Shown here piece after piece: positions 1 through 38,625 of a stretch of DNA of 40,191 bases. Numbering within the stretch: position 1 is the stretch's first letter; every line of letters begins with the position of its first letter. Made by a program: the position numbers and the translations under genes. The notes under the pieces are model-generated. The model saw only the letters and a list, made by a program, of their open reading frames with translations. It had not been told where the DNA came from and ran no database searches. Source of the stretch: a virus; UHGV virus genome UHGV-1553673; one strand, given 5' to 3'.

Positions 1-441
1 ACGTAAACTTTTTCCGGTTGTTGTCGATAGCTCTATATCCCTCAACCGGAAAATAATAATAGTAAAATGCTTAGCCCTGCTAATAATCGCCTAATCCAAA
101 CGCCTCATTCATGTTCTGGTACAGTCGCTCAAATGTACTTCAGATGCGCGGTTCGCTGATTTCCAGGACATTGTCGTCATTCAGTGACCTGTCCCGTGTA
201 TCACGGTCCTGCGAATTCATCAAGGAATGCATTGCGGAGTGAAGTATCGAGTCACGCCATATTTCGCTATCAGGATTCTGTGTGATGGTTACATCGCCCG
301 GCCCAGGGCTGTTTAGTCATCAGCGCTTTCTGACAGTGCTGAGATTTCAACCTGTTGCAGTAAAAATGAGTAGATATAAGGCAAGTGTGCTGCCAAACCC
401 ATCTTTTACGGGGTGAAGGTAGATTTCGTTTGAAGGGTATC

Positions 442-456
442 TGGTGTCCCCTGCAG
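442..456. repeat. att core copy (integrase-distal); 15 nt identical to the tRNA-Arg 3' terminus
   Basis: Exact match of 442-456 to 40141-40155; on the minus strand it reads CTGCAGGGGACACCA, the tRNA 3' end. Confidence 0.7.
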
Positions 457-529
457 ACATCTACTTGAGGCGGCAGGGGGTTGATTAGAATGGTGTTTTT
501 TAGATGTGAGAAATATTTTACCCGCTATT

Positions 530-730
530 TTACCCATTGGCGCGGCTTAAGAGCTTATTTTTGAATTCACAATGGTCACGATATAACCATCTTGCTCGCC
601 CGTGGATAACTTTGGCTTTAGGCAGGTCTCCGGACTTAATCCGGTCATAGATGAAGGTTTTACCGAAGCCAGTATCGGCCATGATGAATTTCAAATCAAC
701 CAGTGAATCAGGCTGTAATTCGTGTTGCAT
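530..730 (-). CDS. AlpA-family DNA-binding protein, likely excisionase/regulator
   Basis: 66 aa with MerR/AlpA-like HTH pattern (TGFGKTFIYDRIKSGDLPKAKVIHGRARW); sits next to the att site. Confidence 0.7.
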   Translation of the reverse strand: MQHELQPDSLVDLKFIMADTGFGKTFIYDRIKSGDLPKAKVIHGRARWLYRDHCEFKNKLLSRANG

Positions 731-749
731 GGGTGCTATCTCCGAATAG

Positions 750-765
750 GGAATCGAACCTGCAA
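750..765. repeat. Second tRNA-derived fragment (16 nt identical to the tRNA-Arg T-arm region)
   Basis: ggaatcgaacctgcaa at 750-765 equals 40155-40170; lies about 19 nt upstream of the alpA start. Confidence 0.6.
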
Positions 766-772
766 ATCAGGC

Positions 773-797
773 AATAAAAAACCGCATTGATGCGGCG
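773..797 (-). terminator. Putative Rho-independent terminator (minus strand)
   Basis: Hairpin ccgcattgatgcgg (782-795) followed on the minus strand by a T-run (A-run 773-781 on plus). Confidence 0.45.
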
Positions 798-853
798 ATG
801 GTAGGTCTGGATATCATTGAGCAATGAACAGGCCTCATCGAGTGTGAGGCGGG

Positions 854-1198
854 TTAGTCCTTGCGTAACTCGCTAATTCTTCTGTAAGTCTCTGGTGCTT
901 TGTTTCCGTGTATCTTCATTTCAGACTTCAACAGAGCAACGAGAGAATCCCATTCGTTGAGGATGCCTTTGAATGCCGGAACGCGCTTTGCAACCTTGTC
1001 GAATGAATCTCTGATTTCTGGAATCTGCTCAACAAGTGCAACGCATCGCCGGAAATCGGCTGCGTCATGTGGAGCGCCGAAGTGATGACCATAGATATTC
1101 TTTTTCAGTCCACATGCGATTGAGGCAAGAGTTGCGCTACTGATGCCGACATCGCCAGTCGATTGCCATTTCAAAACCTTCATAGCCAAATCTGACAT
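854..1198 (-). CDS. Hypothetical protein (114 aa from internal ATG with RBS)
   Basis: ORF 854..1225; a GGAG-type RBS precedes the ATG at 1198; no family recognised. Confidence 0.5.
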   Translation of the reverse strand: MSDLAMKVLKWQSTGDVGISSATLASIACGLKKNIYGHHFGAPHDAADFRRCVALVEQIPEIRDSFDKVAKRVPAFKGILNEWDSLVALLKSEMKIHGNKAPETYRRISELRKD

Positions 1199-1210
1199 TT
1201 CTTGTCTCCA

Positions 1211-1235
1211 ATAAAAAACCGCCATCAGGCGGCTT
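1211..1235 (-). terminator. Putative Rho-independent terminator (minus strand)
   Basis: Hairpin ccgccatcaggcgg (1219-1232) with a T-run on the minus strand. Confidence 0.45.
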
Positions 1236-1298
1236 GGTGTTCTTTCAGTTCTTCAATTCGAATATTGGTTACATTGTTTTCATATATGAATAAATAAA

Positions 1299-1478
1299 TT
1301 AGCTTTTTTCGTTACCTTCGCGTTCTTTATTAATTTTGACAAACTCGTTTTTACCACGCTCTCCAAATGCGTCTTTAGAGTCGTTGTATCCGCAATCGCA
1401 GCACACATAATCATCAGACCATCCACGCATTGTTTTTTCTTTTGCAATATTTCCAGAACCGCATTTTGGACAAGACAT
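1299..1478 (-). CDS. Small zinc-ribbon protein
   Basis: CPKCG...CCDCG cysteine pairs; GGAGG RBS upstream of the ATG at 1478; chosen over the overlapping frame 1280..1519. Confidence 0.55.
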   Translation of the reverse strand: MSCPKCGSGNIAKEKTMRGWSDDYVCCDCGYNDSKDAFGERGKNEFVKINKEREGNEKS

Positions 1479-1574
1479 ATCACTACCTCCAAAGCATGAG
1501 AGAGATGACAACGTAACATTGATTGGAGATTAACAATAGATTGCTGATGTAAAAGATATGTATAAGCTTAGCTA

Positions 1575-2252
1575 TCAAAGGGGAGGTTCTGGTAGTTGCA
1601 TCCAGTCGGTAACATTGCGACTCTGTGTTTCGAAAAATTCATCACCATTGCGGACAATATCGAAAAACTCTCCGTCTCGATATTGCGCATAAAGAACGAA
1701 TGCGCCATCACATAAAATAATTACGTGCTGACCATCATCTGGCATTAGCTCACTACAGCTTATCCAACCATCCGGAGTTACCGGAGAGTTGCCAGCCAGC
1801 GCGTTCAACTTGTAAGCCTGGCTTACAGGTTCGGCACTATGAAGCATGGCAGCGCGGCAGGCGTTCCAGCCAGATGTTCGCCCAAGCGCGTAAACTTCAG
1901 ATGGCTCAAGATAATCAATGTCATGCCCGTCCTCATCGTCGTTCTCAGGTAATGCAGCAGGTACTACCGGTACTGGCGGGGCGGTGTAAAGTGGAATAGC
2001 TTCTGTCTTGCACCCATCCCCCTTGCCGGGTGATAGTGGCGCAAGACACACCCGCCACGGGCCAATCTGCACACCGTCAAAAAGACTAGTAAGCCGCCAT
2101 TTCCACGCTACAGGCTCCGCTTCGATCGATGCCAGTGCAATCCGTGCCAGTTCTTCCGCTTCTTCTGCTGGCAGTACAACGTTGCTACCCGGTCCGTATG
2201 TTTCTCGCCACTGCTTGATTGTCAGCAGTCGATCTTTGGTAATAGTGGTCAT
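1575..2252 (-). CDS. DUF551-like phage protein
   Basis: C-terminal motif ...WMQLPEPP typical of DUF551; AGGAG RBS before the ATG at 2252; coupled to the upstream gene. Confidence 0.6.
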   Translation of the reverse strand: MTTITKDRLLTIKQWRETYGPGSNVVLPAEEAEELARIALASIEAEPVAWKWRLTSLFDGVQIGPWRVCLAPLSPGKGDGCKTEAIPLYTAPPVPVVPAALPENDDEDGHDIDYLEPSEVYALGRTSGWNACRAAMLHSAEPVSQAYKLNALAGNSPVTPDGWISCSELMPDDGQHVIILCDGAFVLYAQYRDGEFFDIVRNGDEFFETQSRNVTDWMQLPEPPL

Positions 2253-2253
2253 C

Positions 2254-2691
2254 TCACTCTCCTTTGATGCGAATGCCTGTTGCAATGCTGTTTATGATGC
2301 TGTCAGTGCATGGGGTAGAAAGCTGGGCATCTCCAGCAATTTTCATGACCTCAACATCTGCATATCGAATACCGAGGTGTATCAGACCGGCTATGCCTGA
2401 CTTAAGCCGAGCATTTTCCATAAATAGAACCTTTGCCCGCTGTTTTTCTGCTTCAAGCTCAACGCGCAGCTTCCCTACCGTTAGCGCAATATCCTCGTTC
2501 TCCTGATCGCGGCTTTTGATGTATTTCTGGTTTCTTTCCCGTTCATCCAGAAGCGCCAGCACAATGTGTGGCGTTATCAGGGACTCAAATTCGGCAACAG
2601 CTTGCTCGCCTCGCTTGTAATTCTTAATCCCACCTAAATCTTTCGCGTTCTGCGCCACCTCACGCAGTGCCTGGTAATTAATTTCGCTCAC
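2254..2691 (-). CDS. Ea22-like (ead) family protein, paralog A
   Basis: N-terminus MSEINYQALREV shared with the next two genes. Confidence 0.6.
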   Translation of the reverse strand: MSEINYQALREVAQNAKDLGGIKNYKRGEQAVAEFESLITPHIVLALLDERERNQKYIKSRDQENEDIALTVGKLRVELEAEKQRAKVLFMENARLKSGIAGLIHLGIRYADVEVMKIAGDAQLSTPCTDSIINSIATGIRIKGE

Positions 2692-3368
2692 TGATTGCCT
2701 CCTTTGCGAAGCTGGGCAGCAAAGTCAACTAACCACTCAGTCATTTCAACCTTCCCTACCAGGTCTGAACCAGGGTGCATACAGCAATCACTCTGCGCCG
2801 CTTTGAAATCCTTACACTCATATTCTTGGGCCACCAGATTTTTTGCAGCTTCTATAGCAGCATCCACCCCCTGCGCCCGGACTTCAGCCAGGAAAGCATC
2901 AGTGGTTGGCGTTTCAGGTATCTGTCTCCTCATCCGTTCTATTGCATGATTGAACCCGAAGTCTTCCGCGAGAGATACGTCATCCATATTGTCATTGTCA
3001 TCCTCAATATCCCGTGATTCTGGAATTGCAAACTTTATTCCCGCATTCTCCGCTGCCAGCGCCGCGCACTTGGCTTCAAGAGCTGCAACCACTTCCTGAT
3101 GGTCTTTGTACTTAACGTATGAGCCGGAGATGTCATCACCTTCGGTGTTTAGCCATGCGTCATTGCAATTCACTGCGTAGGTTCTGATGCTGATGCTCTC
3201 CCGCCCCTGACAGACGCCAGGCCAGTCAATAAAGTATCCGCAATGCCTACCCTCAGACGTGCGCGCAGGATAAATGCCGTTATGACCCGGCAAAATATAT
3301 GCTACCCATTCATCTTGCGTTGCCTGTTCCGCCGCCTCGCGCAGTTCTTGATAGTCAATCTTGCTCAC
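2688..3368 (-). CDS. Ea22-like family protein, paralog B
   Basis: N-terminus [13 protein letters not shown]; C-terminus [13 protein letters not shown]...LRKGGNQ shared with paralog C. Confidence 0.6.
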   Translation of the reverse strand: MSKIDYQELREAAEQATQDEWVAYILPGHNGIYPARTSEGRHCGYFIDWPGVCQGRESISIRTYAVNCNDAWLNTEGDDISGSYVKYKDHQEVVAALEAKCAALAAENAGIKFAIPESRDIEDDNDNMDDVSLAEDFGFNHAIERMRRQIPETPTTDAFLAEVRAQGVDAAIEAAKNLVAQEYECKDFKAAQSDCCMHPGSDLVGKVEMTEWLVDFAAQLRKGGNQ

Positions 3369-3865
3369 TGGTTGCCTCCTTTGCGAAGCTCAGCGGCGAA
3401 CAAACGTACACCAGACGCTTCACTGCGTAGAAACTTAACGGCATAATCAAAACCACCTCGTTCTGCGTCGTCTGCTCCGTTGTCGAGGTTATCTGCGTAC
3501 ATCTCTACCCCCTGCGCCAGCACTTCAGCCAGGAAGGCGTCGGTTGCTGTGGTGTTAAGTGAAAAGTCCTGTCGGCCTGATTTCAGATACGCAATGGCGA
3601 TCTTTGTTGCTGCGCATTCGACAGCGAATTTCTCTTTTTCAGCATCCAGCGCCGCGCACTTGGCCTCAAGGTTATCAATCGTGATTCCAGCAGAACGACA
3701 CTCCCGCAACGCCGTTTCTAGTTTTGATTCAAGTTCACCGAACTTACGCACCAGATATTCAGCGTTTGTTTCGTTAACCTTTAAATCTCGGGGGATGCAT
3801 TTACCTTTCAGAAAACCATCCATCTCAATTAGTGACATTTGTTTCATTTCTTCCCACTCCGCCAC
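3365..3865 (-). CDS. Ea22-like family protein, paralog C
   Basis: Shares the C-terminal block [13 protein letters not shown]...LRKGGNQ with paralog B. Confidence 0.55.
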
Positions 3866-4026
3866 ATTGCATTCAGATATTTGTTGTCATTAACAGAGCC
3901 GAAACTATTTCTCTTAAGCAATTCCTCTCTCGATGGCATTGGCTTTACGCGTTGGCGAATAATCATTTCTGCCGGAAGAATGCCGGGATTGTATGCAAGT
4001 CCTCTCATGGTAAATTTCTCAGTCAT
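3844..4026 (-). CDS. Hypothetical small early protein (60 aa)
   Basis: ATG at 4026 overlaps the stop of the upstream gene (ATGACTGA), indicating translational coupling. Confidence 0.45.
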
Positions 4027-4312
4027 TACTGATAGCGCCATAACGTGAGCGGTAATTACGCAGGCGCGGGTCAATTTCAGGGAAGTGGGTATATGTGGCT
4101 TTGCGGAATGGTCGGATTGATGTCTGGTAAATTCGCTCGCGTTCTTCTTTCTCTGCAAGCCATATACAGTGGCGAAATTCCTTTTCCTCTTTCGTTTCCT
4201 GCGGTAGCGACATTATCCGATCGTAGTTTTTCCTGAATTTATCCAGCACCTCCGATACGGAATTGCCGGAACAGCGGCGCGGGTCATCCGCACCATACAG
4301 AGGCGCTGGCAT
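4019..4312 (-). CDS. Hypothetical early protein (97 aa); possibly Abc-type anti-RecBCD by position
   Basis: Sits downstream of erf/ssb where P22 carries abc1/abc2; sequence not recognised with certainty. Confidence 0.45.
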
Positions 4313-4335
4313 AATGGAATCCTTATTTTTCTAAA

Positions 4336-4719
4336 TCAGAATGGGATGGAATCGTCGTATACAGGAGTGTTCTGCTGGTTACTACTTTGCTGCTGCGGGC
4401 TGTTTCCTGAAGTTGCAAATCCAATCTTTGCATTCAGTAATTCAAGAGTGATTGATTGACCATTTTGCCCCTGATAAACATCAACCCTGATGTTTTCTCC
4501 GGTAATTTCTACAATGCCACCTTCAACAAGAACACTACGGTAGTAATCCGCTTGCGCTCCCGGCTTGGCAAATACAACGGCGCTGTAGTTTGTCCATTCT
4601 TTCTTTTTTGTCTGGCGATCGTAATACTGAACGCCAGCACGGATATTGAATCCGATATTTTCCCCGGCCTGAAACTCTCTTGCGGGCTTGTTTAGTCTTA
4701 CAGTAATCGAATGTGCCAT
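4336..4719 (-). CDS. ssb: Single-stranded DNA-binding protein
   Basis: Acidic C-terminal tail ...YDDSIPF typical of SSB; start overlaps the erf stop (TAATG). Confidence 0.75.
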   Translation of the reverse strand: MAHSITVRLNKPAREFQAGENIGFNIRAGVQYYDRQTKKKEWTNYSAVVFAKPGAQADYYRSVLVEGGIVEITGENIRVDVYQGQNGQSITLELLNAKIGFATSGNSPQQQSSNQQNTPVYDDSIPF

Positions 4720-5324
4720 TAAGCAGCCGCTCCTTCTAATTCGTCTCGTCTGATGTTGTAAACGTCCTGCGCTTTGTGCTGCTCAGGTGTGCCTTCGAGC
4801 ATCTTCCACGCTTTGGCGAACGCCTGTTTAAGCTCTTCTACGGTGTTTTTCTGCAATGCTGCGTCAGTGAATGCTTTTAGAACCTGTTCAGGTGTAGGTG
4901 ATGGTTTTGATTGCTTTGCTGCTGCGTTCTGCTGATGTTTATGCTCGTCGGTATCTGCATCTTTTGCATCATCAATGCCGAACAAACCATTGAGGCAATA
5001 CTTGCGTGCATAAGAGCTTGTAGCTCCCGTAACTTGTGCAGAATCCATTCCTTTCTTGCTTTCTTCCTCTCGTGCAAGAGCGGTTGCCGTATGACTGTTT
5101 TCGCCATCGGTAATAGTTGCCGTGGCTTTCACGTAATACCGATCACCAATCAACACAACTTCATCGCTGATTGATAAAAACAGACCATTCAGTAACGGCT
5201 TAACGCCTTCAAGAATATCTTCGCAGCTTCTGTATTTATATTTACCGAATGAGTTGTACTGATTTTTTGGCGCGTTCAGATTCTCCTGAATGGCTGCCAG
5301 TCTTGCGTAAAATTCTTTGCTCAT
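4719..5324 (-). CDS. erf: Erf-family single-strand annealing recombinase
   Basis: N-terminus MSKEFYARLAAIQENLNAPKNQYNSFGKYKYRSCEDILEGVKPLL matches P22 Erf as I recall it. Confidence 0.8.
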   Translation of the reverse strand: MSKEFYARLAAIQENLNAPKNQYNSFGKYKYRSCEDILEGVKPLLNGLFLSISDEVVLIGDRYYVKATATITDGENSHTATALAREEESKKGMDSAQVTGATSSYARKYCLNGLFGIDDAKDADTDEHKHQQNAAAKQSKPSPTPEQVLKAFTDAALQKNTVEELKQAFAKAWKMLEGTPEQHKAQDVYNIRRDELEGAAA

Positions 5325-5425
5325 ATGACTGTTCTCAGAATGGACATGGCCCAAGGAAATAACGCTGATTTAATACTTCGACTCGGGACAAATTAAGGCA
5401 TACCCGCATTCCTTCGCGGTCGCCA

Positions 5426-5584
5426 TTATGGCGATACCAGAGAGCTTTCTGTGTGTACATGCGTCTCTGTAACTTGCTCTCCTTCACTGTGGTTGCAAGT
5501 GACATGAATATCTCCTTCGTTACCGATTAATTCTTTCATCTGACGAATGAATTCTTCGTCTGACCAGTTATCTGTAAAACTCAT
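5426..5584 (-). CDS. Hypothetical small protein (52 aa from MSFTDNW)
   Basis: ATG overlaps the stop of an upstream 56-aa ORF (ATGA). Confidence 0.35.
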   Translation of the reverse strand: MSFTDNWSDEEFIRQMKELIGNEGDIHVTCNHSEGEQVTETHVHTESSLVSP

Positions 5585-5751
5585 GGACGGCCTTGTTGTT
5601 TCAAAATATCCCAAAGCTTTTCGAGCAAGCTTTTCATTCTTGGTTGTTTAAAGTCTGCTCCGGTTAAAATATTTTTTCGTGAATGCTGTACCGATAAAAT
5701 CGGGTTGAAAGGGCGAACCGATGCCGCCCCTGCAATAGCGAACTGTTGCAT
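5581..5751 (-). CDS. Hypothetical small protein (56 aa), kil-region position
   Basis: GAAGGAG RBS 6 nt before the ATG at 5751; below the 60-aa cutoff of the ORF track. Confidence 0.35.
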   Translation of the reverse strand: MQQFAIAGAASVRPFNPILSVQHSRKNILTGADFKQPRMKSLLEKLWDILKQQGRP

Positions 5752-5834
5752 AGGATGCTCCTTCTGTTTGATTGCATAACGAAAACGCCTCGAGTGAAGC
5801 GTTATTGGTATGCGGTAAAGCCGCGCTCAGGCGG

Positions 5835-6809
5835 CTATTTGATGTCTTGCGTGTAGCCTGTACCGCAACAGCATGAGCATTGCTCTATTGGCGCGTGAAT
5901 GGTATCCATAAGCGTCGTAAGGAAGTTATCAATCATTTCCTTTAGCTCCCATTCGTTATTGGCTTTGAACCCTTTAATCGCCGTATAACCTTTGTAATTT
6001 TCTTGGTCATGTGTCATTTGGAAAATTTCAATTTCTTTCACCGTGTCAGTCTTAAAGTGCAACTTTGCTCTTTGCTTCTTGGTTCTGGCAAAAATATCCT
6101 GATATGAATATGTGTGAGGCTTAAGGAGCGGTATTATTTTTTTAACGGTAAAGCAAAATGCGTAATCACTTGTTATTCTAGCCAGTTTGTTGTCGATGTT
6201 ATCTTTTACGTGCTGGCGTACAATGTCATACATTTCTTTTGATGAAATTTCACAAGGGCTGTTAGCCCGCAAAGGCTCAGGAATTATGATGCAGTCAACA
6301 AGAGAGTGTTTTACGTTTATGTTTTTTACAACGTACCTCTCCTCCCGGAACCCAACATGCCTAATTGCAGAGTAATTAAATTCTGGTGCGTCACGAAAAT
6401 TTTCAACCTCACATACTAATGTGAATTCAGCGTCAACTGGAGAGGTGTAATCAGGTGCAGTATCGTATTTGTATTCATAAAGAGAGCCTCTGATATCCTC
6501 GTCCACTGCGTCACGCTCATTGTAACTAAGTGTCAAAGGGTATTTTTTACTCTCAAGTTCAGCATCTTTAAGCTCGTAGCGAACATTAATTCTTTCACCA
6601 GAGATAATTCTCTCAACCTTTTCAGGGTAATGTTCAATTTCAAACCAGTTTTTGTGAAAGCTGGCTTTGGGTTTAACTCCGTCAAATAGGAGATCAGCAA
6701 TTTTAGATTGATGGTACTGGTAGTGATAACCGTCCTTTGCTGTGCAATCAGTGATAAAACATTTACCAGCGTCGGTTTTAATAATGCTTATTTGCAATGC
6801 GTTACTCAT
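5835..6809 (-). CDS. Hypothetical 324-aa protein in an AT-rich moron; candidate accessory/defence gene
   Basis: GC visibly lower than the flanks; GGAGG RBS before the ATG at 6809; hairpins flank both ends; cysteine-rich C-terminus CSCCCGTG; no family recognised. Confidence 0.6.
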   Translation of the reverse strand: MSNALQISIIKTDAGKCFITDCTAKDGYHYQYHQSKIADLLFDGVKPKASFHKNWFEIEHYPEKVERIISGERINVRYELKDAELESKKYPLTLSYNERDAVDEDIRGSLYEYKYDTAPDYTSPVDAEFTLVCEVENFRDAPEFNYSAIRHVGFREERYVVKNINVKHSLVDCIIIPEPLRANSPCEISSKEMYDIVRQHVKDNIDNKLARITSDYAFCFTVKKIIPLLKPHTYSYQDIFARTKKQRAKLHFKTDTVKEIEIFQMTHDQENYKGYTAIKGFKANNEWELKEMIDNFLTTLMDTIHAPIEQCSCCCGTGYTQDIK

Positions 6810-6983
6810 ATCTCCTCCAGGCAAAAAGAATGCCCTCACACTGGAGGGCAAAGAAGATTTCCAATAATCAGAACAAGTCGGCTCCTGTTTAGTTACGAGC
6901 GACATTGCTCCGTGTATTCACTCGTTGGAATGAATACACAGTGCAGTGTTTATTCTGTTGTTTATGCCAAAAATAAAGGCCGA

Positions 6984-7607
6984 CTATGCGGCCTCGGAAG
7001 GAAGTCCAATCATCTTATTCAAATCTTCTACCCGTAAAGCAGGAAGTGCTGTACTTGCTTTGTCTGCTTCTTTTGGTAGCAATTCTTTGCTTTCAGGCCA
7101 AACTTCAATAAGTCGCTTAACTGTTGTGACTGAGTTCAAAGCAGCCCATACATTTGATTCGATATCCTTTTTCTTGGCTTCAAGTTTTTGTTGCAATGCG
7201 CAGATTTCATCAAACCTTTTTGTTATTTCGTGTTCTGCGTCAAACATGCATTTATCTTTGGTCGGAGTAGGGAGCAATATATCTTCGCCGTTGCCGTCTT
7301 TCCCATATGAATGCCATCCAACCCTTCTGCCAGATACAGTCAGATAAATTGAAGTAGAACGAACATCGTATGAGTAAAATGAACATCCCATCTTTTCAAG
7401 TTCTTCACTTATAGCTACCAACTTGGATGATAACTGATCCACTTCCTCAGTTTTCTTTTTACCGCCAAACGCAATAACTCTGGCGTCAAGTGCAAGCTGG
7501 TTCTTTAACTTTGTTACTTCTTCAAGTTCAGTGAAAACCCCAGACTTAATTAAAGCGTTACGAGCGATTTCCTCTTTCATTCTCGTAGTTAAGCGGATTG
7601 ATGACAT
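6984..7607 (-). CDS. Hypothetical 207-aa protein (AT-rich region)
   Basis: RBS gagagg before the ATG at 7607; central coiled-coil-like stretch; family uncertain. Confidence 0.5.
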   Translation of the reverse strand: MSSIRLTTRMKEEIARNALIKSGVFTELEEVTKLKNQLALDARVIAFGGKKKTEEVDQLSSKLVAISEELEKMGCSFYSYDVRSTSIYLTVSGRRVGWHSYGKDGNGEDILLPTPTKDKCMFDAEHEITKRFDEICALQQKLEAKKKDIESNVWAALNSVTTVKRLIEVWPESKELLPKEADKASTALPALRVEDLNKMIGLPSEAA

Positions 7608-7672
7608 ATTAATTCCTCTCAAATAAGTGCTTTGCTGCCAAAACAATGAACCATCCGGAAATTCCAGATAGT

Positions 7673-7897
7673 TCATAATTCACTCTTCAATACTTCCAAC
7701 TTACTAATCGCCGATAGATATCCGCGCTGATAGGGCATCATCATTCCTTCGAGCTTGCCACTTCTTAACTCCTCCCTGAGCAATTGTATTGCTTGATCAA
7801 TAACCTCTGCCTTAGCGTCCTTTATGGCTTGCTTGCGGGGCTTTGCTTTCTGCTTTGGCAGATTTCTCAAGCATGATGGAATGTATGTCTGATTCAT
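7673..7897 (-). CDS. Hypothetical small protein (74 aa)
   Basis: Lies directly downstream of the N-like gene on the same strand. Confidence 0.4.
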   Translation of the reverse strand: MNQTYIPSCLRNLPKQKAKPRKQAIKDAKAEVIDQAIQLLREELRSGKLEGMMMPYQRGYLSAISKLEVLKSEL

Positions 7898-7900
7898 CAC

Positions 7901-8173
7901 TTACCTGGCTGTCAGTTGTTTTGATTTCCGGTAGCCTGCCGAGTAAATGGCTACGTTTGGCAGGCAAATACTTCCACTGCATTCTTCTGCCTTCTTGCAG
8001 CGAAGGCTTCCGAGTGATGCTGCTTTGTCTGCTCTGACGCAACCAGAGAGATTTAGCGCAATTTTTCGCGCCAGTGCTTCATTACTGCGTCGCTCGGCAA
8101 TAAGTTCTGCTCTGCGAGCTTTGTAGCGGCTTTTTGCCGTACCTTTGGATTCTTTCCAGACAATGGTTACCAT
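7901..8173 (-). CDS. N-type transcription antiterminator (P22 gene 24-like)
   Basis: Arg-rich motif near the N-terminus (KSRYKARRAELIAERR); C-terminus ...AGYRKSKQLTAR resembles P22 gp24; AAGGAG RBS; nutL immediately upstream. Confidence 0.75.
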   Translation of the reverse strand: MVTIVWKESKGTAKSRYKARRAELIAERRSNEALARKIALNLSGCVRADKAASLGSLRCKKAEECSGSICLPNVAIYSAGYRKSKQLTAR

Positions 8174-8283
8174 GATGGTCTCCTTTAAGTGGCTTTGGCG
8201 CATGACGCGTCGAGGTGCTTATCTTCTCGATCGCTGTCTTGCAGCTGCAATTCGCGCCATCCCCAAAACCACTCAAGTTCTGG

Positions 8284-34548: not shown

Positions 34549-34570
34549 TATTTTCTCCGGAATGTTTATT

Positions 34571-36745
34571 ATGCCAGAACAATTATACAACGTTGTTGTT
34601 TCACAACCAAGTCAGTTATTTACTTTAGCTCGCTCGTTTAAAGCAAATGCCAATGGCAAAATTTATATAGGAAAAATTGACACTAACCCGGTAAATCCTG
34701 AAAACCAGATTCAGGTTTATGTGGAGAACGAAGACGGCTCTCACGTTCCTGTTTCGCAACCAATCATCATTAACGCTGCTGGTTATCCTGTATATAACGG
34801 ACAGATTGCCAAATTCGTTACTGTACAGGGCCATTCTATGGCTGTTTATGATGCGTACGGTGCTCAGCAGTTCTATTTCCCTAATGTACTGAAATATGAC
34901 CCCGACCAATTCAGTATTGACATCGTTAATCAGCTTGCTCAAACGGGTAAATATTTAGATGATGAAAGTAAAGGTGATGCGTTAATTGGCGTTAAACAGC
35001 CTTTTTTTGATGCAATAAGAAGGACTCAGCATGATAAAAATTCTGACCTGCTATCCATACAAGATTTAGGGGCAATAAGTGGCTTAGCTAATCCAGAGGT
35101 GGATGACAAAGTTATTTCTGTGCTTAATGCTAATGCTGGATTGTTAATTCCTGCTGGATTTGTCTACGTGACATCTAAGCCAATAGCTACATCGGCAGGT
35201 AAAGTCTTTAGCATCGTATGCCCAAATGGAAGGGCCACCATCAAAGCATCAGGAAACTATGCAATGTTCACTCAACCAGGCATGTTCAAATTTGAGAGAT
35301 GTCTTTTTGAAAACATACTGTTTATTGGTAATGGAGTATCTGATCTGAAATCAGTGTTCATGGAGGCTGATGATGGTGAGTGGGTGGCTAACTTTGCAAC
35401 ATATAACTGCTCATGGGAAGCATTCCATACTATATGGAATGCTTCATGGATTGCAGTATATCATTATTACCCTAAATTTAAATCTGTGAACGATTCAGGA
35501 TATATTCTTACTACGAATAAGTCTGGTGCAAATAACTTTGCAGCATTCAATCTCAATGTTATGGATAACCCAATATTCGAAAACTGTAGAGCAAGAATTT
35601 ACTTCGATATAACAGGTGGATTTAATTTTACCATCAACAATCCATGGATTGAGAAAGGTGAGGTTTTTGGTGGTGCATTTTTTAGACTAAGGCAGTTCTT
35701 TAATTTCAAAGTTATTGATGGTTGGTTTGAGTATTTCAAAGGGGGAAATTTTCTGTACTTAAGAACAGATGGCACAGAGAATACACAATCTGACAACATA
35801 ACTTTTGATGGGATGCACATTAATAACTCTCGCTCTGATTCAGAATTTAAAGGATTGGTTTTAATGGATCAGCCGCAATATGCAGAGAATTATACCGATC
35901 CTAAATTTACGTTTAAGAATATTGTAGAACACAATAGCTCTTCTTCAGGATGGTACTTACTAAAATCCGGTGATGTTACCAATCGCTCAGAATCACTTAC
36001 CGTAATAGAAAATCTTCGTCTTAAATATGGACATCCACCTTGCTCAGATGGAATGACTATAGCAAGAACACAAGACGGAAATAGCCCAGACATTAAAAAC
36101 TCTACAAGAAACCTTAGCACTAATGGTTTACAGTTTCTGCCTAGAGCCTTTCAAACAACAACATACCGGACAAAAAATGGAGAATATCAGCAACAACAAA
36201 TAGTTGATAGTACATCTAATATAGCATACTGGAATATCGGTACCTCAACGGTTCTCGTGTGGGGCGTAGATTATGTTAGGCCTGGTCGGCAGAACGCTCA
36301 AACATGTGGAACGTCAGCATATGCATGGTCAGGTGGGTATACACAAACAGCTTTTCAGGTCACGTCAGACAGAAACTCAAAAACAGAAGAGTCACAAATA
36401 CCTGATGCTGTTCTCGACGCCTGGGGTGACGTTCAGTATGTATCATATAAATTAAAGGCAAGCGTGGCAGAAAAAGGTAGTAAAGCCCGGAGACATATTG
36501 GGGTCATAGCCCAAGACATCAAGACAGCTTTTGAATCACATGGGGTTGATCCATTCGAATATGGCATACTATGTTATGACAATACCCCAGCAACAGAAGC
36601 TGTTTACGATATTTTAGAAGATGGTACTCAGGTAATGCTTCAGGAGGCACGTGATGCTCACTCAGGTTACACTGTACGCTACGAAGAAATACTTTGTCTT
36701 GAGGCTGCATATATGCGTAGAGAGATAAAAAGGATGCAGAAATAA
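34571..36745 (+). CDS. Tailspike: P22-like N-terminal head-binding domain, distinct central beta-helix domain, C-terminal intramolecular chaperone (S74-type) domain
   Basis: N-terminus aligns to P22 gp9 (VVVS.P...F...[33 protein letters not shown]); C-terminal ...[10 protein letters not shown]... chaperone-like module. Confidence 0.85.
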
Positions 36746-36837: not shown

Positions 36838-38625
36838 TTATTTCAAAGATTGAAGTAAGTCTGTTTTTTTGTCTAAGACTTCTCCAATGTAACTTGCTCC
36901 ATATTTCGTTAGATGGTTTGCATCATATGATAAAAATTTGCCATTCTCATCAAAAACTCTAACCATTCCATTGTTGTCTTTTATAAGGTCAAACAAATCT
37001 ATGTAGTCATCGCCAAAAATCATTTTCGCCTTATTGTTAAACTCTATATATCTTGATAGCGGGTATGTTTTTGCTAAAACTCTGTCATTAAGAGACAGGT
37101 TAACAGCAAAGTTATTGTTATACCCGAAGTTTTTTGTGCCAATCAAGTACATTTTTGCAGTTGTTTTTGATTTTATGTAATCGTAACAGTGTTTTAACTT
37201 TTCAACGTTATTATTATAGTCGCCTGCACCCCAATTCTCCGAATATAAAATAATGTCTGAGTCATTCAAGTAGTAATCTAATTTATTTTTATTATCTATT
37301 GACCAATCACATCCACCCTCAAAATATACAATATTAAGATCATTTGTTTTAATCTTTGTAGATATTGCATTAATTAAATCTCTCGCATATGAGTTACCCA
37401 TGATTAATATTTTCTTTCCATTGTCTGAGAACTCAATATTCTTTAATTTCTTCGGGCTATCCACATACTCCTGTGGATTTCCTCCATATGCAAGATCAGG
37501 CCTGATATTTTGCAATCCATATGTTTTGTGCATCAAAATTCCTGATGCTGATAACACCAACGAAAATGCTAATGTATATGATAAGATTTTTTTTGTAGAT
37601 GTTTTTCTCTTGTTTCTGAATGGTTTTTCTACAAAAACATAAGACATCCACGATATAATAAAAATTAAAGGAATGGATGCGATAAAATATGTTGTTGACG
37701 GTTCAAATTTTGAGTTTAATCTTATAAATGCAAAAACAGGTTGATGCCAAAGGTATAGAGAATAACTTATCATGCCACATAACACAATTGGTTTTATTGA
37801 CATGAGCTTTCCAATTCCTTTAGATGCATTTGAATGCATTAAAAACAAACATGCACCAAGAACTGGAAATAATGTTTCAAATCCAGGGTGTGATTTTTTA
37901 CCATTCACAATGAAGTAACTTGATATTATCAATAAAAAACCAAGGTATGCTAAGATGTTACTTTTTCTTTTTATTTTATAGTGCGCAATAGCGGCAACCC
38001 CACCAAGAGCAATCTCCCACGCCCTTGAAGGGAGCATAAGAAATGAAAGCTCCATATTATGCACTGTTGTAATTGTTGCATATAAAAAACTGGCAATTGA
38101 TATTACCAGTAAAAACATAAAACTATTCTTTATTAGTTTATTATGATTTATTGAGTAAATTATATATATTATTACAGGGGCTACAAGATAATACTGTTCT
38201 TCTACAGCAAGACTCCATGTGTGATACAATGGTTTAAATTCAGATGCTGTAGACCAATATCCTGACGTTAAGTACAATAATATATTGTTTGCTGAAAAAA
38301 TTGTTGCAACAACTGATTGACCTAGATTCTTTAGGTCATATGGAACCATCATAAATAATGATATAATGAATGTTACTGATGTCATTAGAATTAATGCAGG
38401 CGCAATTCTACGAACCCTTCTCTCATAAAACCCAGAGAATGTAAATGTTCTATTGCTGCATTCTTTCAGCAAAATGCTGGTAATTAAAAAACCACTAATA
38501 ACAAAAAAAACATCTACTCCAAGAAAGCCGCCAGGAATCCATTGAACACCTGCATGAAAAAAGATAACAGGTAAAACAGCTAATGTTCTCAACCCATCAA
38601 TTTCGGGTCTGTATTTCAGTTCCAT
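36838..38625 (-). CDS. O-antigen acyltransferase, OafA/Oac-type (acyltransferase-3 membrane domain + SGNH domain); lysogenic conversion gene
   Basis: 595 aa; multi-TM N-terminal half (MELKYRPEIDGLRTLAVLPVIFFHAG...); C-terminal GNSYARD SGNH-like motif; strongly AT-rich. Confidence 0.8.
   Translation of the reverse strand: MELKYRPEIDGLRTLAVLPVIFFHAGVQWIPGGFLGVDVFFVISGFLITSILLKECSNRTFTFSGFYERRVRRIAPALILMTSVTFIISLFMMVPYDLKNLGQSVVATIFSANNILLYLTSGYWSTASEFKPLYHTWSLAVEEQYYLVAPVIIYIIYSINHNKLIKNSFMFLLVISIASFLYATITTVHNMELSFLMLPSRAWEIALGGVAAIAHYKIKRKSNILAYLGFLLIISSYFIVNGKKSHPGFETLFPVLGACLFLMHSNASKGIGKLMSIKPIVLCGMISYSLYLWHQPVFAFIRLNSKFEPSTTYFIASIPLIFIISWMSYVFVEKPFRNKRKTSTKKILSYTLAFSLVLSASGILMHKTYGLQNIRPDLAYGGNPQEYVDSPKKLKNIEFSDNGKKILIMGNSYARDLINAISTKIKTNDLNIVYFEGGCDWSIDNKNKLDYYLNDSDIILYSENWGAGDYNNNVEKLKHCYDYIKSKTTAKMYLIGTKNFGYNNNFAVNLSLNDRVLAKTYPLSRYIEFNNKAKMIFGDDYIDLFDLIKDNNGMVRVFDENGKFLSYDANHLTKYGASYIGEVLDKKTDLLQSLK

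Follow-up and report, generated by a model that had tools for sequence, protein, structure and literature searches.

The question raised by this locus is how neighbouring genes of a temperate phage can be almost identical where one ends and the next begins while having little in common elsewhere. The genes, here called g3, g2 and g1, belong to the UHGV virus genome UHGV-1553673, the 40,191 nucleotides (nt) of which form the window analysed, and with g0 they make up four minus-strand genes that follow each other end to end without spacers in the open reading frame (ORF) list. The original prediction regarded g3, g2 and g1 as three tandem Ea22-like paralogs and their common junction sequence as a likely substrate for module shuffling by homologous recombination. 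The latter proposal is well supported by the comparison of phages presented here, in which the junction connects many unrelated gene pairs and homology breaks at its edges. We consider it probable that the conserved islands at the gene borders serve as joints both for translation and for the exchange of whole genes, and that g2 is one such cassette.

The 28-nt sequence AGCTTCGCAAAGGAGGCAAYCAGTGAGC has exactly two sites in the 40-kb window, 2686-2713 and 3363-3390, identical at 27 of 28 positions, and the near-identity of about 30 nt that had been reported at these junctions holds, with coordinates that were 1-3 nt off. Self-BLAST and a dot-plot of 1501-4400 extended the match to 71 nt with 80% identity between the g2/g1 and g3/g2 junctions, the two copies (J1b and J1a) of what we call the J1 island. 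Two further islands, LEAKCAAL and TDAFLAEV, lie inside g2 and have partners in g3 (Table 1). Beyond these three short islands, self-BLAST over the same span found no extended nucleotide identity among g1, g2 and g3. The original prediction had counted a dot-plot without extended identity as a point against itself; this has to be inverted, because short islands amid unrelated DNA are the very signature of boundary-sequence mosaicism. The shortness of the repeat (28 nt) could also suggest a meaningless chance or low-complexity match, an explanation that is practically negligible, since 100 shuffles with 3 mismatches allowed gave no match (a chance expectation of 0) and the same core occurs at junctions in at least 120 viral contigs.

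These contigs were obtained by scanning IMG/VR for the 23-nt core of J1, which was located at a gene junction in every case analysed. Mean pairwise identity among them reaches 0.6-1.0 only at about -30 to +50 nt from the start codon, compared with 0.30-0.35 elsewhere. When the 400-nt flanks of 113 instances, anchored on the start codon, were clustered, 50 upstream and 33 downstream clusters were found in 84 combinations, with many-to-many partnerships. The border sequence is hence conserved among phages with unrelated flanking genes, and J2, a second class of island (GGCATTCGCATCAAAGGAGAGTGAgATG) at the g1/g0 junction, behaves alike: it is present in 85 of 121 loci, is conserved only from -20 to +17, and appears as an isolated 45-nt match in the relatives designated L125 and L127-L129. 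The LEAKCAAL island is an isolated conserved patch of about 40 nt across loci, and the TDAFLAEV island is one of about 55 nt in 53 loci.

Where homology ends was surveyed in pairs of loci that are homologous over at least 300 nt on one side. It was lost 10-50 nt upstream of the start in 106 of 135 pairs and within 50 nt downstream in 41 of 75; as the loci were picked by the exact 23-nt J1 core and are phylogenetically non-independent, these pair counts and the binomial p-values are nominal. Near-identical genomes likewise part company at the island. Six loci (L125-L129 and L065) encode the g2 protein of the window unchanged. Their sequence agrees with the window at 98-100% identity as far as position 2653, which is 37 nt into g1 at the downstream edge of J1b, and is unrelated beyond it; they carry an Ea22-family gene of 153, 216 or 178 amino acids (aa) in place of g1. 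Two of them match the window only from 3400 (L126, 100%) or 3390 (L065, 99%) to 2653, a stretch made up of g2 and the J1 island at either end, and the genes that flank it left and right are unrelated. Judging from these alignments, g2 behaves as a discrete cassette bounded by two J1 joints, because the 98-100% similarity of its relatives ends at the outer edges of both (2653 and 3390-3400). In L126, a 96%-identical block at 3080-2856 corresponds to the interval between the two intragenic islands.

Gene content at these loci is accordingly variable in both identity and number. A g3-type gene is directly joined to a g1-type gene, with no g2, in about 18 instances, and a g2-type gene to a g1-type gene, as in the window, in about 12. 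Copy number, a comparison that had been proposed at the outset, is one Ea22-motif gene in 98 loci, two in 18 (12 directly tandem) and none in 7. Three consecutive coding sequences annotated ead/Ea22-like, of 161, 168 and 61 aa and with 4-nt overlaps, are found at 2751-3921 of L130, from E. coli O111:H2 12A (NZ_CP077479.1); the 61-aa one looks like a truncated N-terminal module, and 61-aa ORFs recur in six IMG/VR loci. The 2.9-kb region at 1500-4400 is extremely mosaic: matching records number 546 among phage entries and 2,981 among 5,426 complete E. coli genomes, but no phage record and no complete E. coli genome contains the whole arrangement at 80% coverage or more. The exact arrangement was found only in a 45-kb metagenome contig (L124; ENA ERZ1745129 NODE_435), which is 100% identical over window positions 1-7368. 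Among phage records, similar DNA occurs in phages of E. coli, Shigella and Salmonella. Only one GTDB species-representative genome, an Escherichia sp., has the exact J1 core, and the element looks confined to Escherichia within that set.

The proteins tell a similar story of partial homology. Both g1 (82.4 bits, 6e-23) and g2 (93.6 bits, 2e-26) exceed the gathering threshold of 27 bits for the Pfam family PF13935 (Ead/Ea22-like) in a hidden Markov model (HMM) search, and g3 has no Ead_Ea22 match with the Pfam HMM at E<=0.01 or even at E<=10. By pairwise BLAST, g1 and g2 share only their first 16 residues, MS(E/K)I(N/D)YQ.LRE.A..A, of which 10 are identical; g1 and g3 have nothing significant in common; and the C-terminal halves of g2 and g3 are 34% identical (E 3e-9), with both proteins ending in LRKGGNQ. 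The description of three Ea22-like paralogs is consequently only partly right: g1 and g2 belong to the Ead/Ea22 family, g3 does not and also lacks the N-terminal MSxIxYQxLRE block ascribed to all three, and the C-terminal LRKGGNQ block ascribed to two of them is indeed common to g2 and g3. Over its full length of 160 aa, g3 is 74% identical to HkaH of phage HK620; it matches phrog_614 (1.4e-47) and shows partial likeness to phrog_368 over aa 39-160. The HK620 record notes HkaH as similar to HK97 gp37, and the counterpart gene in HF4s is annotated 'EaE'. Full-length homology and a place directly downstream of the DUF2737 gene put g3 in this EaE/HK97 gp37/HkaH group (phrog_614).

Of the two Ea22-family proteins, g1 aligns with lambda Ea22 over aa 1-85 at 62% identity, the BLAST match ending there, and with HF4s EaD over aa 1-102 at 77% identity; the homology of aa 1-85 covers the lambda-type N-terminal segment and coiled coil. 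The match of g2 to lambda Ea22 is limited to the first 21 aa, and its aa 97-226 are 37% identical to HkaH. To judge from these matches, g2 is a chimera with an Ea22 N-terminus of 21 aa, a middle segment of its own and an EaE/HkaH-like C-terminal half. The three genes are two members of the Ea22 family and one of EaE type, connected by a chain of partial homology in which g1 and g2 share the N-terminus and g2 and g3 the C-terminus. Neither g1 nor g2 has a detectable counterpart of the lambda-type C-terminal domain (the PDB 8DSX fold), as their BLAST matches stop at residues 85 and 21.

A tandem duplication in situ of one ancestral Ea22-like gene, followed by divergence with the junction as its slowest-evolving remnant, would explain why adjacent genes on the same strand have the same joint twice and why g1 and g2 both match Ead_Ea22, and it fits the tandem Ea22-motif pairs in 18 of 123 loci and the three in a row in the E. 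coli O111:H2 prophage. We regard it as very unlikely, given that g1 and g2 have 16 residues in common and g1 and g3 nothing significant, that g3 falls outside Ead_Ea22 and has a full-length homologue in HK620 HkaH, and that each gene has 96-100% identical copies beside different neighbours in other phages. Because such near-identical copies sit beside different neighbours elsewhere, the present arrangement appears to have been assembled from pre-existing, diverged modules rather than to have diverged where it stands.

The joints also have the anatomy of translation elements, which the original prediction overlooked: a Shine-Dalgarno sequence (SD) in the last codons of the upstream gene and a GTGA overlap of stop and start. 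On the coding strand J1 reads CTT CGC AAA GGA GGC AAY CAG TGA, and the GTG AGC of the next gene begins one base ahead of the stop. The strong SD AAAGGAGG lies 6 nt upstream of the GTG, inside the K-G-G codons of an upstream protein that ends in RKGGNQ. J2 reads ATC AAA GGA GAG TGA g ATG with its SD within K-G-E, and the joint between the DUF2737 gene and g3 reads CGG AGT GGG AAG AAA TGA with an overlapping ATG, so that the C-terminal tail NAMWRSGKK holds the ribosome-binding site (RBS) of g3. Stop and start overlap by 4 nt (GTGA) at g3/g2 and g2/g1, and the g1/g0 border is TGAgATG. In all three joints, AAAGGAGGCAAYCAGTGA with GTG (J1), AAAGGAGAGTGAgATG (J2) and GGAGTGGGAAGAAATGA (DUF2737/g3), the SD and the start codon are 5-9 nt apart. 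We infer that these genes are built for translational coupling, because the SD falls in the last 5-6 codons of the upstream gene and the start overlaps or abuts its stop. RNA structure was rejected as a cause of the conservation, since the folds of the three joints were no better than those of shuffles (z -0.60, -1.56 and -1.07).

This arrangement offers an explanation for the conserved protein tails. Among loci L001-L129, the DUF2737 protein ends in RSGKK or WSGKK in 28 of 28 cases in which a g3-type gene (MKQMSLIE...) comes next, and in RKGGNQ or RKGGSQ in 19 of 19 cases in which another gene follows (17 of Ea22 type, MS[KE]I[DN]YQ..., and 2 of M[SN]NRFYMM type). Tails ending in RKGGNQ occur on Ead_Ea22 proteins (24), DUF2737 proteins (18), DUF4406 proteins (2) and proteins without a Pfam match (57). 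It has been reported that Ea22 proteins all end in a basic-Gly-Glu (+GE) tripeptide 'of unknown significance' (Dydecka et al. 2020, PMC7093339). This tripeptide corresponds to J2, and in 88 instances it is followed by the TGAnATG of varied downstream genes. Because the tail of DUF2737 switches in step with the following gene, the most plausible reading of the +GE and RKGGNQ tails is that their codons form the RBS of the downstream gene and would travel with that gene and not with the upstream protein. This reading was not found in the two Ea22 papers (PMC7093339, PMC10834534). Lambda ea22 (L123, NC_001416) terminates, at 540-560 of the locus, in the GGCATTCGCATCAAAGGAGAGTGAg island that also closes g1; there, the ATG after the J2 island reads ATC (TGAgATC), with no gene for about 190 nt downstream. 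The island in lambda is an apparent relic of a boundary joint, which could account for the conserved KGE terminus of its protein.

The same anatomy could mean that functional constraint is all that the islands reflect: a strong RBS, a coupled start and an important N-terminal helix (MSKIDYQALREAAEKA) would be conserved for their own sake, and the joints would result from rare, random illegitimate recombination filtered by selection (the Hendrix/Juhala model). The functional nature of the SD and of the GTGA overlap is obvious, the first 16 residues are conserved as protein up to codon 16 with synonymous variation back from codon 11, and many phage module boundaries have no conserved boundary sequence (PMC3233612). 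In addition, the same relatives also break at other gene borders: comparison of L124-L129 with window positions 4020-5813 places homology breaks at 4020, 4315, 5334 and 5813. Nevertheless, synonymous sites well outside the SD are near-fixed in the J1 core, with Leu-7 encoded by CTT in 60 of 64 cases, Ile4 by ATT in 84 of 84, Ala8 by GCA in 63 of 66 and Arg10 by CGT in 77 of 84, against window-wide synonymous shares of 0.20-0.45 for these codons; variation reappears at codons -10/-9 and from codon +11. Overlapping genes would also demand illegitimate joints that are exact to the nucleotide; still, flanks combine in 84 ways and relatives show no difference across the full island, and the tracts of perfect identity meet or exceed the minimal pairing length of phage recombinases. 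Constraint without recombination at the islands is, in our view, unlikely.

We therefore return to the islands as joints for both translation and exchange. In the mechanism that we propose, each island would double as an RBS and coupling element and as a recombination patch, with the conserved C-terminal tails as by-products of the RBS of the next gene. Because it is conserved at the nucleotide level among lambdoid phages with unrelated flanking genes, the island of about 80 nt could offer a patch of perfect homology to annealing recombinases. Where both flanks differ between two loci, perfect identity extends across J1 for a median of 29 nt, and for at least 27 nt in 63% of such pairs, a length that matches or exceeds the minimal efficient pairing segment of Red-beta (23-27 bp; that of RecA is 31-34 bp; PMC3945230). 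Erf-type recombinases have been reported to be as efficient as Red on homologies that are short or diverged (PMC3945230). Erf, which is encoded here three genes upstream, is the likely catalyst of such short-homology exchange, a role that RecT or Rad52-type enzymes may take in relatives. The relatives that are 98-100% identical over g3-g2 (L124-L129) differ in their recombination modules, which comprise ERF with an ssb-like gene, RecT with Sipho_Gp157, or Rad52 with SSB.

At the island, whole genes could be exchanged, inserted or deleted with both reading frames kept; because the genes overlap and there is no neutral spacer, only exchange within the island would preserve both frames and the RBS. 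The LEAKCAAL and TDAFLAEV islands may play the same role at domain borders, and their action as joints would account for the Ea22-head/EaE-tail chimera in g2.

Several points weigh against this mechanism. No recombination event was observed, and all exchanges are deduced from present-day sequences. The breakpoint maps place exchanges at the island or its edges and are no proof of a crossover inside it, because two relatives will stay alike right across an island that all loci conserve, wherever the real crossover lay. Conservation of the J1 core could stem entirely from selection on translation initiation, and translational coupling itself is read from sequence alone, with unremarkable RNA folding at the joints (z -0.6 to -1.6). 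The loci were chosen for the exact J1 core and are not independent, which makes their pair counts and p-values nominal. Finally, the longest perfect run shared by the two J1 copies of the window is 19 nt, below the Red-beta minimum; intramolecular deletion of g2 is for this reason probably inefficient and rare, and the joint would matter mainly between phages.

Among known systems, phage HK620 is the closest parallel in its short conserved gene-border sequences, which likewise lie in the highly mosaic early-left region of P22-like and lambdoid phages. Its order of hkaI (DUF2737), hkaH, hkaG (Ead/Ea22), hkaF and hkaE (DUF551) matches the DUF2737-g3-(g2)-g1-g0 order here, and its hkaH/hkaG and hkaG/hkaF borders carry the same J1 (with one base different) and J2 joints. 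HK620 differs in having a single Ea22-family gene, where the window has the extra cassette g2 between two J1 copies, and g3 diverges from HkaH in its middle (about aa 68-98), an intragenic mosaic. Clark, Inwood, Cloutier and Dhillon, in J Mol Biol 311:657 of 2001, reportedly described the boundary sequences of HK620 following the modular theory of Susskind and Botstein. According to PMC3233612 and PMC2327257, which cite it, that work proposed that homologous recombination targets these boundary (linker) sequences in the early-left operon. The early-left operons of P22-like phages are known to be highly mosaic (PMC2629481), and HkaH, which is grouped with P22 EaE and HK97 gp37, takes the same position after the DUF2737 gene as g3.

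The Ea22 proteins of lambda and Shiga toxin (Stx) phages share the Ead_Ea22 signature (Pfam/InterPro) with g1 and g2. Lambda ea22 also has a GTG start that overlaps the preceding stop and the same N-terminal nucleotide island, and g1 ends with the '+GE' tripeptide of the family. Ea22 proteins have been described as mosaics in which a shared N-terminus and a coiled coil are combined with unrelated C-terminal domains, Stx variants having a 63-aa insert in addition (Goddard et al. 2024, PMC10834534); the lambda C-terminal domain is represented by PDB 8DSX. In contrast to lambda, the window has two family members in tandem, and by BLAST neither contains a counterpart of the lambda C-terminal domain; g2 has instead an EaE-like C-terminal half that ends in RKGGNQ and not in +GE.

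An analogy of mechanism, not of membership, can be drawn with integron cassette arrays, which also consist of promoterless, co-oriented accessory genes of variable number and identity bounded by a short conserved element. The joints of the window, however, have no structured attC-type site or dedicated cassette integrase; exchange here would proceed by homologous recombination, whether general or of the phage, over roughly 25-80 nt of common coding sequence, and the element at the boundary belongs to two ORFs and to an RBS. A shufflon, a diversity-generating retroelement and a site-specific cassette mechanism were rejected because the repeats are direct and coding, and no dedicated recombinase or reverse transcriptase was found among the ORFs surveyed around g1-g3.

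Table 1. Genes and conserved islands of the locus, in positions of the 40,191-nt window.
Feature	Position	Strand	Description
J1a	3330-3400	-	g3/g2 junction; SD AAAGGAGG in RKGGNQ codons, GTGA overlap, first ~12 codons of g2
J1b	2653-2723	-	g2/g1 junction; second copy of the J1 island
J2	2233-2277	-	g1/g0 junction; second island class (GGCATTCGCATCAAAGGAGAGTGAgATG); SD AAAGGAG in KGE codons; ATG 1 nt past stop
LEAKCAAL island	3046-3080 in g2	-	Partner at 3636-3670 in g3; 35 nt, 86% identity
TDAFLAEV island	2863-2919 in g2	-	Partner at 3504-3560 in g3; 57 nt, 77% identity
erf	4719-5354	-	Rad52-superfamily single-strand annealing recombinase, same operon; PF04404, 2.5e-44
DUF2737 gene	3844-4008	-	54 aa; HK620 hkaI / HK97 gp38 type; upstream of g3
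g3	3365-3847 (listed 3365-3865)	-	160 aa; EaE / HK620 HkaH / HK97 gp37 type
g2	2688-3368	-	226 aa; Ead/Ea22 family
g1	2254-2691	-	145 aa; lambda-type Ead/Ea22 family; N-terminal block and coiled-coil region; ends GIRIKGE (stop)
g0	1575-2252	-	225 aa; DUF551 (EaA-type); start supplied by J2 joint; PF04448, 2.7e-17

The genome is a complete P22-like temperate one, with P22 portal, coat, large terminase, integrase and CI-like repressor, and the locus is the non-essential 'ea' segment in the early-left operon of this E. coli prophage. The early-left order is N, Nmad5, Gad1, ..., erf, ssb-like, abc2, DUF2737, g3, g2, g1, g0, Lar-like, ..., xis. For g3, the likely start is not the GTG at 3865 but the ATG at 3847, and this ATG shares bases with the stop codon TGA of the DUF2737 gene (ATGA); the DUF2737 assignment is based on a PF10930 match (2.4e-29) to aa 51-102 of the long ORF. 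A 356-aa ORF at 5835-6905 (minus strand), situated between the Nmad5 gene and erf, matches Gabija anti-defence 1 (Gad1) in Pfam (5.7e-67); L125 and L129 have different DNA in place of this segment, and their homology to the window breaks at about 5813 and 6825-6944. The match to nucleotide modification associated domain 5 (Nmad5; 5.2e-72) belongs to a 230-aa ORF at 6984-7676 (minus strand), downstream of the N antiterminator gene (7901-8203) with a 75-aa ORF (7673-7900) in between. A 70-aa zinc-finger ORF at 1299-1511 (minus strand) shows a likeness to the Lar restriction-alleviation protein that is below the gathering score (PF14354, 1.6e-4). The Lar-like ORF, Abc2 and Gad1 suggest, from their predicted identities, a segment rich in counter-defence genes.

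Elsewhere in the window, a P22 head-binding domain and a Peptidase_S74 chaperone domain are both present in the tailspike (34562-36745). A 595-aa AT3-SGNH acyltransferase is encoded at 36838-38625 (minus strand) between the tailspike gene and int, a position typical, by analogy, of lysogenic-conversion O-antigen acetylases. In relatives, the prophage is probably integrated beside a lacY-like gene of the major facilitator superfamily.

What the proteins of the locus do can be approached mainly through lambda Ea22, which is tetrameric and pro-lysogenic according to work on lambda and Stx phages (PMC7093339, PMC10834534). By analogy with it, the g1, g2 and g3 proteins are probably oligomers formed through an N-terminal helix and a coiled coil, with interchangeable C-terminal domains, and may influence the lysis-lysogeny outcome (PMC7093339, PMC10834534). 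A literature search found nothing relevant on the function of Ead/Ea22-like proteins beyond the Wegrzyn and Donaldson papers. Thousands of g2 homologues in E. coli are annotated 'ead/Ea22-like family protein', all PHROGs matches of these proteins are of 'unknown function', NCBIfam and PADLOC gave zero matches for them, and a PDB sequence search with g2 returned a single spurious antibody match (E 0.94). The AlphaFold model of g2 is poor (mean predicted local distance difference test score, pLDDT, 45.3; predicted template modelling score 0.31); its alignment, drawn from the best 120 homologues, held 12 sequences, namely g2 itself, g3 and 10 others at least 97% identical to g2. Within this otherwise poor model, a pLDDT of 60-74 suggests that aa 157-221 are helical. 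Our finding assigns no biochemical function to the three proteins.

The Ea22/EaE genes lie among those for Abc2 (anti-RecBCD), Gad1 (anti-Gabija) and the Lar-like protein. One could go further and imagine the ea segment as a recombination-based cassette array in which each gene carries a 5' 'adapter', made of the last 5-6 codons of the preceding gene, the SD, the start and the first ~12 codons, so that any cassette could be plugged in, in frame and coupled. Ea22 and EaE would then be a common oligomerising scaffold with rapidly swapped C-terminal effector domains directed at host or rival-phage targets, and +GE and RKGGNQ would have no function at the protein level. We consider this extended picture, taken as a whole, quite improbable.

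In summary, the locus is a clear example of the known boundary-sequence mosaicism of phages, which is ordinary for lambdoid phages, and it represents no new type of system. The Ead/Ea22 annotation, the mosaicism of Ea22 and of early-left regions, and homologous recombination at short boundaries are already known. What is added here is the quantification of a single joint, the recognition of g2 as an apparent cassette between two copies of that joint, and the interpretation of the +GE and RKGGNQ ends as codons of an RBS that goes with the downstream gene. The '+GE' puzzle (PMC7093339) would then have a simple explanation, namely that the tail codons co-vary with the next gene and not with their own protein. 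For annotation and structure-function work on Ea22-type proteins, this implies that conserved termini need not mean protein function, since the codons of the tail make up the SD of the following gene. J1 and J2 may also be regarded as natural in-frame docking sites for accessory-gene swaps in engineering. For temperate phages, the locus provides an unusually clean and quantified case of accessory-gene reshuffling, in which one joint of about 80 nt connects at least 84 gene pairings.

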